64,000 nucleotides of DNA, taken from NCBI GenBank assembly GCA_016191015.1, contig JACPPM010000044.1, forward strand, positions 3,862 to 67,861. Reading direction: 5' to 3'. This DNA is from Acidobacteriota bacterium. Lineage in GTDB: Bacteria > Acidobacteriota > CAIWXX01. This document shows, in pieces, positions 13,106 to 31,987 of this stretch; position 1 is the stretch's first letter; each line of letters starts with the position of its first letter. A model generated the notes under the pieces. The model was given only the letters and a program-made list of their open reading frames with translations, did no database searches and was not told the origin of the DNA. The position numbers and the translations under genes are program-made.

Positions 13106-13582
13106 TCACGCGTGTCGGACCGTTACCGCCGTATTGCCCCAAGCGATGCGCTTCGCCGTCAGGGCGTGACGAGTGTGCGGGCGCATGAGATGGATAAGGT
13201 CGAGCGCCTCTTCCTCGGTGTGGCCGCGGAGCCTCAACAAGGCGAAGGTGATCATGCCGGTGCGATGCATGCCGGCCGAACAATGGACGAGGACGGAGCG
13301 CCCCGCATCGAGCTTTTCAGAAAGGAGGACTAACGCATTGATGACGGCCGCGATGCGCCGGCCTTCCGGGGGGCGGGAGTCTTCCAGTGGCAACCATGTC
13401 CACTCCATTCCCGACGACTCGGCGGCCTCGCCGATCGCGCGTGCCCCTTCTTTTTCGGACATTAGCGTGACGACAAGCTCGCAGCCGGATTCTTTCAAAG
13501 CGAACATCGAACTCAACTTGGGCCTGTGCCAAAGGGCCATCCGCCCCTTTCCGATCTGGACCCACACAGGATTCGGCATCAC
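13106..13582 (-). CDS. Dual-specificity / tyrosine protein phosphatase (Cys-based)
   Basis: Signature VLVHCSAGMHRTG (HCx5R[ST]). The start overlaps the upstream gene's stop by 4 nt. Confidence 0.8.
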   Translation of the reverse strand: MMPNPVWVQIGKGRMALWHRPKLSSMFALKESGCELVVTLMSEKEGARAIGEAAESSGMEWTWLPLEDSRPPEGRRIAAVINALVLLSEKLDAGRSVLVHCSAGMHRTGMITFALLRLRGHTEEEALDLIHLMRPHTRHALTAKRIAWGNTAVTVRHA

Positions 13583-14292
13583 GGACCTTCGCGCTGTTTC
13601 CGCTCAACACCGCAGAAACCAGCCGCCTTCATCTCTTGGAACGAATCGATGGCGCGGTCGATGGCTCGCCTGACATCCGGATCAGATTCCGAGGAGAATT
13701 CCCTTACGAGCGCATCGGCTGCCGCGCGCAGCGTCCTGCGTTCGTCGAGATCGTAGCAGTCGTGGTCGAGATGATCGAACAGGTCGCGCAGGGCGTCCGC
13801 GGCCCGCTCTCTGACGTGCGCTTCCCCACATCTCAGGCCGTTCATCAGAAGGCCGGTCGCTTGCACCAACCTTCCATTCAGCCCGGCGTGACCTCTCACG
13901 TATCCGAAGAAATCCGGATCAGAAAGGTCTTCGGCTTCACAGGCGATCATGTCAACGGTCCTCTCGACGTTTGGCTCCTCGCGCAGGATTGCGACCTTTC
14001 CGAGCATCCTGTCCAGAACGAAGCGGCGATAGTCTATCCACATCTCCTTGCTTGCCCTGGTATCCATGATCAAGACGGTGCCGGCGAGGTGAAACGAAGC
14101 CTTTGCAGGTGTGTCCTTCCCATGATGCTCTCGCACCATGCATCGCTCCTTGTCGAGGAGCAGGCTCCTTCCCAAGGCGAGCGAAATGGCGAGGGCCATG
14201 CGCTGATTGAGATCGTAGAAACGAGGGTTCTCCAACACGACTGGATTAAGCATCCTCGACCACGCGTCCCTTTTCCTCCGAGATCGTCGCAT
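13579..14292 (-). CDS. Hypothetical protein with a helical, HEAT-like C-terminus
   Basis: Coding-looking ORF with no recognisable catalytic motif. It sits between the channel-like RyR gene and the phosphatase and is translationally coupled to the phosphatase. Confidence 0.55.
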   Translation of the reverse strand: MRRSRRKRDAWSRMLNPVVLENPRFYDLNQRMALAISLALGRSLLLDKERCMVREHHGKDTPAKASFHLAGTVLIMDTRASKEMWIDYRRFVLDRMLGKVAILREEPNVERTVDMIACEAEDLSDPDFFGYVRGHAGLNGRLVQATGLLMNGLRCGEAHVRERAADALRDLFDHLDHDCYDLDERRTLRAAADALVREFSSESDPDVRRAIDRAIDSFQEMKAAGFCGVERKQREGP

Positions 14293-14339
14293 CTAGGCCT
14301 CCCTGGAGCTCCACTCATCGGATGAGCGAAGAGAACGCT

Positions 14340-29203: not shown

Positions 29204-29362
29204 CTCTTTCCGAGTTGAGTTTCGCCATCATATTCCCAACTCGTCTTCACCTCAACCGGGCCTCGCGTTCAACTCGACGCCCAGTTCCACAACATGACTG
29301 TTGCCCTCGTTTCGACAGCGGTAGTCCTGCGCGACCCGCGCGCAACGCGGTTCGTGGAATGC

Positions 29363-31987
29363 TCAGATGTGTGACTTGAGCACAGCGTAGCCAGCTTTTG
29401 CCAGGATCCGCGGGATGTCGCGCACAAGGAATCGGTCCCTCTCTTTCTGCCCTTCCGGCAGCTGCTCCCACGGGAGCAATGCTTCGTGCTGCTTGTTCGC
29501 CTTATTGGTGTCGGACGAGTAGCTCCACCCGGCTCCTATCTTGGCTTGCATCCACCGGTCGTGTTCCATCTTCGACAGAAGATCGAGATCCGGACCTGGA
29601 AACTCGAATGGCCGCTCATTGCTCCGCGCCGGCATCATCACGTAGCTGACGGCAGAGAGCTTGTTTGGGATATCGCGCACGTTGCCGCGGTTCTGTTCCT
29701 TCTCGTCCTCGGCCAATTGCTGATAGGGCTTGATCGCGCTGTTGGTCTTCAGGATTTCATCATTCTTCGGCCCATAGCGATAGCCGTTGGACTTCATGTT
29801 GTCACAGAAGACCTCATGAGCGGCTTCGGCGAGTCTCTCGAGAAGGGGTCCATCCAGCCTCATTTGTTGGGTCAGCGCCATGAAATCCCGCCCGTCGACG
29901 TGCAGTTCGAGTTGGGCTTCGGAAGGCAGGCACGAGCGCTCGAATGCGCTCCTTCCGGCGAGCAGGCTCATCCCAATAACGGCTTCGAGCGAACGGGCTC
30001 CGTGCTTGTATTCACGGGTATGAAGGAACGCGCGGAGAACGCCCGGGTCTATGCTCGGGGCCAACGCGCCGCCCTGCTTCTGGAAAATGTGCCGGACCGT
30101 CCGGGAAAGCACCGATCGCAGCACCATGGCTCGGCGGATCACGTGGAGTGAGTCGACCGGCTTGCCGCTGGGAACCTGAGGGTTGAGACCCAGTATGTTG
30201 ATGTAGCCCTTCAAACGGCTGAGGAAGTCCGGGCCTTTCATCCTGACGAGCTCTTCGCGGCTCAGCGCTCCACCGAAGTCCTCCATTCGAGCGCACGTAC
30301 CTCCGGCGAAGACAAAGATGGCACGGCCAATAGGGTGCGCGATCTGTCCCTGCTGGAAGAAACCATCCTGCATGGGGGCGAGGAAATATCGAAGCCACCC
30401 CAGAGGCCTTCCTGCCAGCGCCGTGTCAAACTCGTCCCAGAACACGAGCGGAATCTGACCGGACAGTGCAACGTCTCGCACCTGGTGCAGAGCATCGAAG
30501 AGTGCTTCTTGCCCATCAAACTGGGAGAGGTTGAATTCAAGCGGCTTGATGGCACTGGACCGCACCGAGCGGGCGACCTGCTTCACTCCGAACGATTTCC
30601 CTGATCCGGGAGGTCCGAAGACCCCGATCGAAAGCGGCCGCTGCTGGCTCTGCCCGCAATATTCGATGAACAGACTTCGGATGCAGCGGAAGCTCTCGAT
30701 TTCATGGCGATCCGCAGTGATCAAGTCCTCGAACTGACCTAGGGGGACTCCTCTGAGGGCCGTCTCCGGCCCCTTCAGCACAATGTCTTCGGCGATACTA
30801 TCCAACGACCCCGCGCAACGATCCTGGAGGATTGTCCAGAAGGCGCTTTCAGGGGCGGTGCTGCCATCTGACGCGGAGCCGCTGATGAATCGTGAGGGAT
30901 CTTGCACATCGACCACGTCGAAGGGTCTTGCCACGGCCGCCACCACCTTCGCAATCGCTTCGTGCGGGAAACTCAACCCTGCCCGCTTCCCGCCGATCGC
31001 TCGCTCTTCATAACCTTGCTGATGGAGCACGCGCATCGCTGCGATGCCGGCTTGGATGCCCTGGACAAGATCGGGGTCTTCGGGGCGGATCATGACCTGG
31101 CGAGCCAGAGAGCCCGCGAGGCACGATGTGTAGCCAATCATTCCTCCTGGCAGATTCTGATTCCACGCGCCCTCGGGGAGTGTGGGGTCATAGATGAGCT
31201 TGCAGGTGGAATCCGCGCGCGAGTGCAGCCATGCCCCGGCCGTGTCGAACGATACGACGATGTGCGCGATGCGAGAGAGCGAATTGACGCGCGGGTTATG
31301 CGTCAGCTCCCAGAACAGATCCTGCACGGTTCGTTCCCAGGAGAGCTCCCGACTGATCTTGACCTCGGTGCGCCGCAGGTCGTTGACGGTCATGACAACG
31401 ATCAGCCGATCTGACCACTGTTCCAACAGGTGCTCCCACAGCTCTCCCTGCGCAACCGGCCGGGCCATCTTGAGGAGTATCCACGGGCGACGCCTGGATT
31501 GGACCAGTGCCCGCGGCCACATCTCCTTCTGGTTCCGAAATCCCAGGTCGGCGTCGTCGAGCACAACGAGGTCCGTTTCGGACGTATCGTCTGCGACGAC
31601 TTGGCACTCCCGACTCCCGGGATCAACCCCCAAGGACTCTTCGACCCGCCACGCCAGCGCCTTTCCGTCCGTGCGCTTGTACTGCGACCAGAGCGCATAC
31701 GAGTGATTCATACGTTCGTCGTCGAGCTGCGCAGGTCCGAAGGATGCGCCCGCCCGTCTCACTTCGAAATCCGGCCCGCCGTCACGGCGGAGTGTTTCGG
31801 CGACCGCGTCGATCAGCCCGGCCACCAGCGCTGCCCCGCCACACTGAGAGGAGGCACGCACTGTGTCAACTCGATCACACGACTGCGATGCGCTGTCCTG
31901 GCGTTGTCGAAAACGCCTCAAGTTCCAATCGATCGTCACGTCGCCTGTTACGATGGCGATCTTCTTCTGCGCGCGAGCGTCCGGCAT
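29363..31987 (-). CDS. PfkB/ribokinase-like N-terminal domain (degenerate), AAA+ ATPase and tandem RyR-like module
   Basis: N-terminus KKIAIVTGDVTIDWNL...CGGAALVAGLI...DLVVLDDADLGF...GYTSCLAGSLA (PfkB-like layout, tentative). Walker A IGVFGPPGSGKSFGVKQVA. Walker B-like PLVFWDEFD. C-terminus AHEVFCDNMKSNGYRYGP...YQQLAEDEKEQNRGNVRDIP and LSKMEHDRWMQAKIGAGWSYS...LLPWEQLPEGQKERDRFLVRDIPRILAKAGYAV. The ATG at 31987 has GGAGG 7 nt upstream; the ORF is open to 32041. Confidence 0.8.
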   Translation of the reverse strand: MPDARAQKKIAIVTGDVTIDWNLRRFRQRQDSASQSCDRVDTVRASSQCGGAALVAGLIDAVAETLRRDGGPDFEVRRAGASFGPAQLDDERMNHSYALWSQYKRTDGKALAWRVEESLGVDPGSRECQVVADDTSETDLVVLDDADLGFRNQKEMWPRALVQSRRRPWILLKMARPVAQGELWEHLLEQWSDRLIVVMTVNDLRRTEVKISRELSWERTVQDLFWELTHNPRVNSLSRIAHIVVSFDTAGAWLHSRADSTCKLIYDPTLPEGAWNQNLPGGMIGYTSCLAGSLARQVMIRPEDPDLVQGIQAGIAAMRVLHQQGYEERAIGGKRAGLSFPHEAIAKVVAAVARPFDVVDVQDPSRFISGSASDGSTAPESAFWTILQDRCAGSLDSIAEDIVLKGPETALRGVPLGQFEDLITADRHEIESFRCIRSLFIEYCGQSQQRPLSIGVFGPPGSGKSFGVKQVARSVRSSAIKPLEFNLSQFDGQEALFDALHQVRDVALSGQIPLVFWDEFDTALAGRPLGWLRYFLAPMQDGFFQQGQIAHPIGRAIFVFAGGTCARMEDFGGALSREELVRMKGPDFLSRLKGYINILGLNPQVPSGKPVDSLHVIRRAMVLRSVLSRTVRHIFQKQGGALAPSIDPGVLRAFLHTREYKHGARSLEAVIGMSLLAGRSAFERSCLPSEAQLELHVDGRDFMALTQQMRLDGPLLERLAEAAHEVFCDNMKSNGYRYGPKNDEILKTNSAIKPYQQLAEDEKEQNRGNVRDIPNKLSAVSYVMMPARSNERPFEFPGPDLDLLSKMEHDRWMQAKIGAGWSYSSDTNKANKQHEALLPWEQLPEGQKERDRFLVRDIPRILAKAGYAVLKSHI

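Follow-up and report, generated by a model that had tools for sequence, protein, structure and literature searches.

Three large proteins that are encoded within one 64,000-nucleotide stretch of an Acidobacteriota genome (assembly GCA_016191015.1, contig JACPPM010000044.1, positions 3,862 to 67,861 of the forward strand; this whole stretch is referred to below as the window), and that are otherwise unrelated to one another, end in a common C-terminal module, a tandem of two RyR repeats (Pfam PF02026). One is a channel-like protein, one combines a RelA/SpoT pyrophosphokinase with a SLOG domain, and one is an AAA+ protein with a PfkB-like domain; they lie in a gene island together with TIR and DUF4062 proteins, putative NAD hydrolases (NADases) that are the likely producers of a signal (Table 1). 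The interpretation that is preferred here, at a probability of roughly 0.55, is that the three proteins share, in the RyR module, a receptor for NAD-derived nucleotides which the neighbouring TIR or DUF4062 enzymes would make, and which would switch on separable effectors.

The shared RyR module

The original prediction, made from the letters of the window alone, held that three otherwise unrelated proteins share a C-terminal tandem RyR module, and proposed as a check that the three C-termini be searched for PF02026 or for matches to one another. Matches of both kinds are significant in all three proteins, and the peptides quoted in the prediction occur in the proteins exactly as given. PF02026, which has a gathering cut-off of 27.4 bits, is detected by hmmscan in the channel-like protein with 72.4 bits (E 3.7e-20, two stretches), in the RelA/SpoT protein with 51.4 bits (E 1.3e-13) and in the AAA+ protein with 86.1 bits (E 2e-24, two stretches), and it is also matched by 30 of 30 members of the RelA/SpoT family. 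When the C-terminal segments of about 150 amino acids are compared with BLASTP, the channel is 41% identical to the RelA/SpoT protein (E 9e-35) and 32% identical to the AAA+ protein (E 6e-22), and the RelA/SpoT and AAA+ proteins are 27% identical to each other (E 2e-17). The regions N-terminal to the module produce no BLASTP alignment among the three proteins (best E 0.16), so that only the modules align and the N-terminal parts are entirely different, as had been claimed. A profile of the module run against all six frames finds exactly three copies in the window, and in each protein the module is a tandem of two repeats of which the first is the more divergent.

The comparison of folds covers the channel and AAA+ proteins, each modelled by AlphaFold2. 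Foldseek aligns both models with RyR3 Repeat12 and with the Bt-hRyR chimera over 163-205 columns (probability 1.00, TMt 0.52-0.62), the AAA+ model matching the Repeat12 structures 6uhi, 9ls7 and 9l9b with E 2e-9; the matched RyR3 Repeat12 structures are bound to ATP, ADP or AMP-PCP. A search of PDB sequences matches the module to RyR2 with E 2.5e-23. The shared tail is a genuine RyR Repeat12-type tandem, with a similarity among the three proteins that is far beyond chance.

Ligand pocket of the module

To our knowledge, no role of the RyR domain other than in animal channels was known before mid-2026. In 2020 it was still written that what RyR domains do in bacteria is not known (PMC7399828). 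Phage RyR-domain proteins have now been reported to bind or cleave 2'cADPR and 3'cADPR (10.64898/2026.05.28.727677; 10.64898/2026.06.04.730250), which are isomers of cyclic ADP-ribose (cADPR). The crystal structure of one of them, RyDEP, places ADP-ribose (ADPR) in a pocket formed by H75, W78, H100 and D117, and six of the eight phage homologues tested in the same study bind these signals, the two that were characterised further being nanomolar sponges (10.64898/2026.05.28.727677). The gp68 protein of Pectobacterium phage CB1, RyR Tad, has a dissociation constant of 43 nM for 3'cADPR, binds 2'cADPR and cADPR as well, and contacts its ligand through H129, W132, K147, H154, K170 and D171 (10.64898/2026.06.04.730250).

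The phage proteins match one repeat only, and an ungapped alignment places the binding residues of gp68 on repeat 2 in each of the three window proteins. The corresponding residues are H540, W543, R558, H565, K581 and N582 in the channel (616-residue numbering), H771, W774, R789, S796, W812 and D813 in the RelA/SpoT protein, and H827, W830, T845, H852, R868 and D869 in the AAA+ protein (892-residue numbering). The pocket is spaced as His, Trp at +3, Lys/Arg at +18, His at +25 and Asp at +42; among 107 modules drawn from the three families the first His and the aromatic residue are present in 100%, Lys/Arg at +18 in 98 (about 93%) and Asp at +42 in 96. Repeat 1 retains the His and a Tyr or Phe.

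The original prediction allowed the module to be either a docking unit or a ligand-sensing unit. Docking would make of it a homotypic adaptor, like the effector-associated domains (EADs) or Death-like domains of NTP-dependent conflict systems, which unites the three proteins by RyR-RyR contacts, and the placement of one small helical domain on otherwise unrelated neighbouring proteins is indeed the pattern of EAD adaptors, in which a copy is most closely related to the other copies of its own locus (PMC7159879). In phage RyR proteins with a single repeat, homodimers form through helices alpha1 and alpha4 (10.64898/2026.05.28.727677; 10.64898/2026.06.04.730250), and the island contains STAND NTPases. 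These STAND proteins, however, carry no RyR module, and the tandem repeats form an intramolecular pseudo-dimer, both in the models and in the Repeat12 structures, which uses up the dimer interface. Same-locus modules are also no more alike than others: cross-family identity is 40.6% within a locus (n=12) versus 38.5 +/- 3.8% between loci, within-family identity is 38-48%, and each module is nearest to its own orthologues. The lack of closeness within a locus, taken together with the conservation of the pocket, favours a common ligand over mutual docking; an EAD-type homotypic adaptor was rejected by the module identity test, and an adaptor role is judged to be very improbable. The sensing of an NAD-derived signal, the other role that had been proposed, gains from the phage proteins, whose binding of cADPR isomers through residues that are kept in repeat 2 suggests by analogy what the window modules may bind.

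The three RyR-tailed proteins

The pore and RCK domains originally assigned to the channel-like protein are both recovered. Its open reading frame (ORF) encodes 616 amino acids, and the start is probably the GTG at 16154, which would give 604. Pfam recognises TrkA_N (E 1.3e-19), and the AlphaFold2 model (pLDDT 85.9, pTM 0.79) shows helices at residues 2-45, 51-63 and 78-102, corresponding to the first transmembrane helix, the pore helix and the second transmembrane helix, followed by two Rossmann domains and then the RyR tandem. The best structural match in Foldseek is GsuK (4gx0, 4gx1 and 4gx2, including ADP- and NAD-bound forms; E 4e-11), full-length chains of which align with the model over 515-534 columns (E 4e-10), and further matches are to the TrkA ring, MthK and then RyR3 Repeat12. 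The channel resembles GsuK, MthK and TrkA in its topology of two transmembrane helices and a pore helix followed by two RCK (TrkA_N) domains per subunit, and GsuK itself binds ADP and NAD+. It differs from them in adding the C-terminal tandem RyR module, of which some relatives carry two or three, and in the pore loop: a TVGYG-type selectivity filter is not found in the channel or in 34 homologues, in which the loop is conserved with the consensus YLSLQLFxLESGxxxGP (LQLFxLESG where the filter would be expected), the window protein having LFVMESSGD after the pore helix. Pfam Ion_trans_2 does not match the window channel. Homologues with the same RCK-RyR domain order form at least 518 clusters at 90% identity.

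The alarmone-synthetase fold and SLOG domain that had been read in the RelA/SpoT protein both hold, the former with a strong Pfam match (Table 1) and the latter with an LSDAT_prok match that is weak in the window protein and is found in 21 of 30 members of the family. All of the synthetase motifs of RelA/SpoT homologues (RSH) are present in the protein (RxKxxxSxxxK, DxxGxR, YRSxH, ExQxRT and HxxYK), and in 30 homologues the residues R57, K59, S63 and K67, D84, G87 and R89, Y130, S132 and H134, E166, Q168 and T171, and H182 and K187 are invariant or nearly so. Homologues with the same domain order form at least 579 clusters at 90% identity. PADLOC matches the synthetase part to PDC-S33 (E 2e-16), and the RelA/SpoT synthetase fold, with all of its catalytic motifs, is common to the window protein and to the toxSAS toxins (FaRel, CapRel, PhRel). 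As in toxSAS, a small translationally coupled gene lies upstream, the product of which could neutralise the RelA/SpoT protein. The window protein is not, however, a small single-domain toxin, since it has 837 amino acids and four domains including TPR, SLOG and RyR sensors; its partner is a NUDIX hydrolase rather than a described toxSAS antitoxin, and its toxicity is putative. The NUDIX protein is nearest to NudG/MutT-type NCBIfam models and is not NUDT9/ADPRase-like, which speaks against the likeness to the NUDT9H domain of TRPM2 that had been suggested for it.

In the third protein, the PfkB-like domain and the AAA+ domain that had been proposed are recovered by different means, PfkB by AlphaFold2 and Foldseek and AAA+ by Pfam. 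The gene start at 31987 in the original prediction is that of the public gene call, and the ORF itself extends to 32041. In the AlphaFold2 model (pLDDT 75.8) the first 390 or so residues match the PfkB kinases HldA (4e84) and LacC (2awd) and ribokinase (5c3y) with E 1e-8 and TMt 0.5-0.58, and the PfkB fold is recognised by this fold search, the N-terminal 734 amino acids giving only marginal AAA+ matches against PDB sequences. The GG pair G50 G51 is invariant in the PfkB-like domain, and the position where GAGD is expected reads, by eye, PGGMIGYTSC, which lacks the Asp. NCBIfam contains no family for the protein; homologues with the same PfkB-AAA-RyR order form at least 1263 clusters at 90% identity.

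A ClpA/ClpB-like double-AAA+ protein of about 730 amino acids (AAA, AAA_lid_9, AAA_2 and ClpB_D2-small) is found between channel-RyR and PfkB-AAA-RyR genes in 15 loci (for example L005:7295-9472 and L007:11555-13741) and is absent from the window, and one TIR partner carries Clp_N repeats (L183:11844-13892); these Clp-type neighbours are a hint that the AAA-RyR branch may be connected with an unfoldase or protease. In the window the AAA-RyR gene also stands beside a divergent SPFH/Band-7 gene (the pair spanning 29363-33685), an arrangement that is kept in a close relative (L182:3848-8668), where a gene for a 199-amino acid tubulin/FtsZ-like GTPase lies between the two.

Candidate signal producers

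The TIR protein, the NUDIX hydrolase, the AAA+ protein of the bacterial enhancer-binding protein (bEBP) type and the Cys-phosphatase that had been called among the neighbours are all matched by Pfam. The TIR gene is divergent from the channel gene, and its product contains TIR_2 (E 5.7e-11) as well as Zn_Ribbon and HEAT_2; the SxW..E motif, with Glu128, is kept in an alignment of eight locus-associated TIRs. In locus L001 a TIR+HEAT homologue (34% identity) adjoins the channel homologue.

The large protein that had been called a DUF4062-NACHT STAND NTPase is secure in its DUF4062 (E 1e-9) and AAA_16/STAND (AAA_16 E 1e-15) assignments, and weak in NACHT itself (E 5e-4) as well as in nSTAND1 and WD40. 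Its sequence, and its likeness to characterised relatives, suggest a sensor resembling Avs/NLR proteins, with NAD+ as the substrate from which it would liberate ADP-ribose: the DUF4062 (NIR) domain of Avs-type proteins converts NAD+ to ADPR and nicotinamide (10.64898/2026.09.04.749371; 10.64898/2026.05.01.722283). A second protein of this kind is encoded at the left edge of the island, beyond the range covered by the original prediction; its WD40 repeats are matched by Pfam with E 4e-132, its N-terminal DUF4062 was found by jackhmmer and alignment, and its N-terminal 690 amino acids resemble DUF4062-STAND proteins of loci L004 and L007. Directly upstream of this gene there is a VIT-vWA protein at 2579-5167(+), an arrangement that recalls the conflict systems with vWA-containing NTPases (Kaur et al. 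2020).

Both window genes have the N-terminal DUF4062 with its Glu (Glu121, conserved in at least 90% of 28 DUF4062 domains), the STAND region and the C-terminal repeats of the DUF4062 NADases PsAvs2, Swarozyc, Vulcan/Vesta and Evangelion, an architecture the same as that described in 10.64898/2026.09.04.749371, and NADase activity is predicted for them on that basis. They differ from those proteins in being recurrent neighbours of RyR-tailed proteins (see below), which suggests that ADPR made by DUF4062 may also be read as a signal, a use that has not been described before.

Co-occurrence and modularity

RelA/SpoT-RyR genes occur at 344 loci in 185,579 species genomes (0.2%), patchily across bacterial and archaeal phyla. 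These loci were found with an alignment of the RelA/SpoT family as the query, and 80 of them were analysed; scans of the species genomes with single sequences gave five loci for the AAA+ protein and one for the RelA/SpoT protein. Gene calls in the fetched loci are crude six-frame ORFs, and the co-occurrence figures are minimum values because many of the loci are short. Full-length homologues that keep the order of domains are mostly 40-60% identical, come from many bacterial phyla and from archaea, and have public names no more specific than 'RyR domain-containing', 'NAD-binding', 'ATPase' or 'hypothetical'. Among 1.84 billion representatives of clusters at 50% identity, the tandem-module profile matches 11,684 at E<=1e-3 and 1,411 at E<=1e-30.

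The original prediction proposed to ask whether genes for the RyR-tailed RCK channel, RelA/SpoT-SLOG and AAA+ proteins co-occur across genomes; they do, and the three architectures cluster far more than chance. A second RyR protein is present in 32 of the 80 RelA/SpoT-RyR loci, the channel being found in 23 and AAA-RyR in 13. The commonest partner is NUDIX, in 55 of the 80 (no more than 300 bp away in 49, the median gap being 4 bp), and the core of the island is most often NUDIX-RelA/SpoT. TIR_2 is found in 25 loci, DUF4062 in 20 and one or the other in 40; where at least 8 kb is available on both flanks, TIR or DUF4062 is present in 20 of 30. Around the channel, 12 loci in species genomes include five with AAA-RyR, two with an adjoining DUF4062-STAND gene and several with TIR, and in 80 independent metagenomic channel loci TIR occurs in 27, in 20 of these within 705 bp and mostly as the next gene downstream on the same strand. 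Per 10 kb there are 1.1-1.6 TIR ORFs at distances of up to 1 kb from the anchor gene and 0.09-0.2 at 6-10 kb, a fall in density of 8-12-fold; this decay with distance, rather than a set of random loci, is the internal control for the enrichment. Profiles built by jackhmmer could in principle drift, but every match that was checked was confirmed: ten of ten TIR matches are Pfam TIR_2, and they carry variable TPR, WD40, other beta-propeller, NACHT, HEAT or MshEN regions, as is expected of signal-generating sensors.

A comparison of individual loci shows which of these genes belong together. In L019, from an Acidobacteriota metagenome-assembled genome (MAG) with a RelA/SpoT orthologue of 63% identity, AAA-RyR, an inositol-phosphatase-family gene, TIR, NUDIX, channel-RyR and RelA/SpoT-RyR are packed into 9.4 kb between the same flanking genes as in the window, with no STAND gene or bEBP within the cluster. 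The Acidobacteriota MAG GCA_040755995.1 is 63-81% identical to the window. In the close relative L020 (88-90% DNA identity) the NUDIX gene, the RelA/SpoT gene, a 238-amino acid gene and the phosphatase gene are contiguous, and the 4.3 kb of the window from 14293 to 18624, which comprise exactly the channel and TIR genes, form an insertion relative to L020 and a clean indel. The DUF4062-STAND cassette (21757-27510 of the window versus L020:2371-9401) cannot be aligned between the two and has been replaced, in L020 by a 1354-amino acid DUF4062-NACHT-WD40 gene, a 365-amino acid WD40 gene and a 319-amino acid gene, a replacement which is typical of fast-turnover immune receptors. In L183-L186 the island is reduced to three genes among housekeeping genes: RelA/SpoT-RyR, a TIR-Clp_N gene with which it shares a 4-bp overlap, and a convergent channel-RyR gene. 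The island is a set of separable modules (TIR with channel, NUDIX with RelA/SpoT, AAA-RyR, and the NLR-like NADases), and its parts are mixed by genomes and do not make one obligate complex. That the genes between 13.1 and 32.0 kb all belong to a single wired system, as originally envisaged, was rejected by comparison with L020, L019 and L183, in view of the insertion of the TIR-channel pair, the swapped STAND gene and the rare conservation of the bEBP and phosphatase. The patchy spread, the differences in presence between close relatives and the replacement of the STAND gene are hallmarks of conflict systems.

Other arrangements of the module were also seen in the loci. A survey of architectures with the RyR profile returned mostly TrkA_N-RyR variants. 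Further architectures (P0361, P0363, P0364, P0370 and P0420) include RCK channels in which the tandem module occurs two or three times, a RelA/SpoT protein that bears a module at either end, and one protein with the module N-terminal to RCK. In an Eggerthellaceae MAG a kinase-like protein with RyR is about 1.4 kb from a TIR_2 gene (L017:6919-8517 and L017:9937-11208), and directly upstream of the channel gene in the minimal three-gene island there is a 192-amino acid gene (L183:9416-9994) with a faint YAcAr (SLOG-family) match that is below threshold (E 5e-3). Stand-alone host RyR proteins occur beside AAA-RyR or channel genes, as tandems of 170 amino acids (L013:2940-3449 and L015:2141-2650) and as a single-repeat protein of about 130 amino acids (L006:4119-4508); by analogy with phage sponges, such modules could buffer the ligand.

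Proposed mechanism and alternatives

TIR domains make cADPR isomers, and the SLOG domain of ThsA senses 3'cADPR. The scheme proposed here builds on the domain identities, folds, pocket residues, catalytic motifs, gene linkage and modularity described above, and draws on sequence, structural models and analogy for the ligand, the direction of signalling, the outputs of the effectors and the role in defence. An invader would be sensed by neighbours with variable sensor regions, namely the TIR protein, with its zinc ribbon, TIR and HEAT regions, the DUF4062-STAND-WD40 NLR-like proteins, or both, whereupon TIR or DUF4062 would convert NAD+ to ADP-ribose-type molecules (a cADPR isomer or ADPR). In the RyR module this nucleotide would occupy the His/Trp/Lys-Arg/Asp pocket, and the SLOG domain of the RelA/SpoT protein would probably bind it too; the presence of an LSDAT SLOG in the RelA/SpoT family would supply a second ADPR-type sensor and favours the scheme. 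Binding would activate the GsuK-like RCK-gated cation pore, causing membrane depolarisation or ion leak, the RelA/SpoT pyrophosphokinase, causing growth arrest through alarmone synthesis or tRNA pyrophosphorylation, and the PfkB-fold/AAA+ ATPase as a third effector. The NUDIX hydrolase, in an operon with RelA/SpoT, would most likely serve as an antidote or reset by keeping the RelA/SpoT product, or else the signal, under the threshold.

The main rival assigns the production of the ligand to the RelA/SpoT protein itself, and is essentially the wiring of the original prediction, in which that protein was the producer of a nucleotide signal: RelA/SpoT would make a (p)ppApp- or (p)ppGpp-like molecule, NUDIX would degrade it, the RyR modules of the channel, of the AAA+ protein and (as feedback) of RelA/SpoT would sense it, and TIR and DUF4062 would merely be co-resident. 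The intact RSH synthetase motifs and the tight NUDIX-RelA/SpoT pairing, the closest in the loci, agree with such an arrangement, as do the resemblance of the NUDIX protein to nucleoside-polyphosphate hydrolases of the NudG/MutT type rather than to ADP-ribose pyrophosphatases and the binding of ATP and ADP by RyR3 Repeat12 in PDB entries. Channel and AAA+ RyR genes occur together without RelA/SpoT, however, in L003, L005, L007, L008, L009 and L014, and the 33 metagenomic channel loci of at least 10 kb contain RelA/SpoT in five cases and TIR in 15. The experimentally shown ligands of RyR domains of the prokaryote/virus type are, moreover, cADPR isomers and ADPR only, and the RelA/SpoT protein bears two sensor-type domains (SLOG and RyR), as effectors do. 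It is more likely a signal-gated effector than a signal producer, the TIR and DUF4062 NADases being the likelier producers, and the rival is considered unlikely.

A further alternative, which is judged to be quite improbable, is that the RyR module reads the general metabolic state (ATP/ADP/NAD(H) or energy charge) and regulates housekeeping ion transport, stringent-like control and an ATPase, the clustering with TIR, DUF4062 and STAND genes coming from a common genomic island and not from a common signal. It agrees with the gating of RCK domains and GsuK by ADP and NAD+ (4gx1, 4gx2), with the very large size of the families with their 40-60% identity, and with the many loci without a detectable NADase gene, and RyR3 Repeat12 has been proposed as a metabolic sensor (10.64898/2026.06.04.730250). 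It does not sit well with the steep decay of TIR genes with distance at both anchors, where TIR is often adjacent and on the same strand, with the restriction of the genes to a patchy 0.2% of species genomes, with the TIR-channel pair being an indel between near-identical relatives, or with the existence of a three-gene island of RelA/SpoT-RyR, TIR and channel-RyR alone. This patchiness, TIR adjacency, indel and three-gene island point to mobile conflict systems rather than to housekeeping regulators.

Several observations weigh against an NAD-derived ligand and TIR or DUF4062 producers. The RelA/SpoT gene is partnered most strongly by NUDIX (69%) rather than by TIR, and half of the RelA/SpoT-RyR loci have neither TIR nor DUF4062 in the available sequence, including 10 of the 30 with long flanks, so that the producer would have to act in trans there, or the ligand would have to be something else. 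DUF4062 proteins have been described as self-sufficient NAD-depleting effectors, not as makers of signals. In the pocket, positions +25 and +41 vary, +25 being often Ser or Thr (Ser in the RelA/SpoT family), the window channel has Asn instead of Asp at +42, and repeat 1 has diverged further than repeat 2. The module could simply sense adenine nucleotides, since ATP and ADP are also ligands of RyR Repeat12 domains. The channel is without a canonical K+ selectivity filter, so its conduction is a prediction. Finally, PADLOC recognises no system in the window and has no match for the RyR proteins, and its TIR-domain matches are weak (ThsB E 1.5e-4).

Other genes of the window

The features of the window are collected in Table 1. 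Two genes beyond the channel, the phosphatase and a 237-amino acid protein, directly follow the RelA/SpoT gene in the close relative L020, give 81% identity by blastn and are absent from the other loci examined. The bEBP is matched by PADLOC to RtcR_PspF2 in its AAA part only, its N-terminal 184 amino acids match no family, no helix-turn-helix match was obtained, and it is conserved in about four of the 80 loci; it is probably accessory, and neither it nor the phosphatase is a conserved part of the island. That it drives the RyR operons was considered and dropped, because no sigma-54 consensus lies upstream of any RyR gene; the promoter consensus is not enriched in the window (16 matches versus 24.6 expected). 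Two sigma-54-like sites with one mismatch (TGGCAT-N5-TTGCA) are present at 32365-32380(+), about 80 bp upstream of the SPFH/Band-7 gene (32459-33685), and at 12940-12955(-), 26 bp upstream of a BNR/Ig-domain gene (11019-12914), and the orphan bEBP may regulate these flanking genes.

The predicted membrane protein between the STAND and NUDIX genes also has a longer ORF of 544 amino acids, which overlaps the STAND gene by 500 nucleotides and has an N-terminus that looks non-coding. On the left, a small protein at 10078-10677(-), with a DUF4032 fragment and an HPr-like domain, is found with 81% DNA identity beside the island in an Acidobacteriota MAG and serves as a synteny anchor. The right-hand 28 kb of the window are housekeeping genes (fatty-acid synthesis, electron-transfer flavoprotein, dihydroorotase, succinyl-CoA ligase).

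Table 1. Coordinates of the RyR-tailed proteins, their domains and their neighbours in the window
Feature	Position	Strand	Basis or remarks
Channel-like candidate effector: two-transmembrane pore loop, tandem RCK, tandem RyR	14340-16190	-	Pfam, AlphaFold2, Foldseek
Channel, pore-loop region, two transmembrane helices	about 15816-16154	-	
Channel, tandem RCK/TrkA_N domains	about 14826-15815	-	
Channel, tandem RyR module	14382-14822	-	Pfam, BLASTP, Foldseek
RelA/SpoT pyrophosphokinase + TPR + LSDAT SLOG + tandem RyR, 837 amino acids	18631-21144	-	Pfam
RelA/SpoT protein, RelA_SpoT domain	20581-20979	-	Pfam E 8.8e-17
RelA/SpoT protein, LSDAT-type SLOG	about 19198-19644	-	Pfam LSDAT_prok E 3e-4
RelA/SpoT protein, tandem RyR module	18643-19083	-	Pfam, BLASTP
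PfkB-fold + AAA+ + tandem RyR	29363-32041	-	ORF 892 amino acids; public gene call from 31987, 874 amino acids
AAA+ protein, PfkB/ribokinase-fold domain	30818-31987	-	Foldseek
AAA+ protein, AAA+ core	about 29942-30694	-	Pfam AAA E 2e-4
AAA+ protein, tandem RyR module	29375-29845	-	Pfam, BLASTP, Foldseek
TIR protein: zinc ribbon + TIR_2 (16530-16826) + HEAT-repeat C-terminal region	16377-18263	+	Pfam
DUF4062 (NIR, TIR-like NADase domain, 26969-27268) + STAND NTPase + C-terminal repeat region	22910-27445	-	Pfam
Second DUF4062 (about 5286-5645) + STAND + WD40 (13 repeats)	5241-9710	+	Left island edge
NUDIX hydrolase	21219-21623	-	Pfam NUDIX E 4e-19; PADLOC PDC-S07; directly upstream of RelA/SpoT gene
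Predicted membrane protein, 376 amino acids	21783-22913	-	Between STAND and NUDIX genes; no Pfam or NCBIfam match
Sigma-54-type AAA+ activator (bEBP)	27512-29203	-	Pfam Sigma54_activat E 3e-53
237-amino acid protein	13579-14292	-	No match in Pfam or NCBIfam
Cys-based DSP/PTP phosphatase	13106-13582	-	Pfam PTP-SAK E 5e-10

Relation to known systems and significance

The known systems with the closest logic are Thoeris types I-XI, in which, as here, a TIR with a catalytic-type Glu stands beside effectors with a nucleotide-binding sensor domain; this domain is SLOG in ThsA, and one of the window effectors also has SLOG. The membrane-channel effector of types V and X is paralleled by the window channel, and modular, swappable gene content and a patchy distribution are common to both. 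The differences are in the parts. The sensor here is a tandem RyR Repeat12, which is not among the 29 effector types listed in the portions of the Thoeris survey that were available, and the terms RyR, TrkA and RelA_SpoT are not found in the survey text or in the available part of its supplements (10.64898/2025.12.03.692087). The effectors (RCK channel, RelA/SpoT kinase and PfkB-AAA+) are new for TIR systems and several are present per locus, and the TIRs are large multidomain sensor proteins that are not ThsB-like, NCBIfam ThcB4 giving 26 bits against the window TIR where the cut-off is 220. The island would by analogy follow a Thoeris-like logic, in which both the receptor domain and the effectors would be new to TIR/NADase signalling.

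The phage anti-Thoeris proteins RyDEP, a glycosidase, and RyR Tad, a sponge, have the same PF02026 domain and the same pocket (His-x2-Trp...Lys/Arg...His/Ser...Asp) with identical spacing, and their ligand class is the one proposed by analogy for the host modules. They are single repeats that homodimerise and act against the host as sponges or hydrolases, whereas the host proteins have an intramolecular tandem fused to effector domains and would, on the same analogy, be receivers. The eukaryotic RyR Repeat12 and Repeat34 and the oomycete PKD-RR likewise place a tandem RyR on a cation channel, at 20-28% identity, with the same fold and an adenine-nucleotide pocket, and they share the vocabulary of an NAD-derived cyclic nucleotide that leads to a channel. 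They differ in that the six-transmembrane RyR/IP3R pore is replaced in the window by a two-transmembrane RCK-gated pore of the GsuK/MthK type, in that SPRY, RIH and the other RyR domains are absent from the window proteins, and in that the module here is also found on non-channel enzymes.

The literature searched, with the 2015 SLOG/LSDAT paper (Burroughs et al., NAR) outside its scope, contains no description of host RyR-domain effectors and no bacterial system of this composition, in agreement with what the original prediction had supposed; for RyR in connection with Thoeris, SLOG, alarmone synthetases or conflict systems it yielded only the two phage preprints and unrelated work.

A broader scenario, which is tentative and may well be wrong, is that a path from TIR or DUF4062 through cADPR or ADPR to an RyR-gated channel exists in prokaryotes and that the RyR tandem is an ancestral immune receptor, attached to a channel, an alarmone-type kinase, an ATPase and a kinase-like protein, captured by phages as RyR Tad and RyDEP, and inherited by eukaryotes in ryanodine receptors and the oomycete PKD-RR. 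If it were true, the long-disputed action of cADPR on RyR channels would be an evolutionary relic of bacterial immunity.

The locus and its several hundred relatives are candidate host users of the RyR domain that has been studied in phages; they comprise three effector families and probably others. In minimal form the cassettes measure only 3.9 kb for TIR with channel and 6.3 kb for RelA/SpoT with TIR and channel. If the module is a receptor, these genes would represent a new and widespread branch of TIR immunity in poorly studied phyla and in archaea, with new effector logics in the form of an RCK channel, a RelA/SpoT enzyme under gating and a machine of the PfkB-AAA+ type; the origin of the phage sponges would be explained, and there would be a tractable bacterial model for the sensing of cADPR-type ligands by RyR Repeat12, which is a question of calcium signalling.

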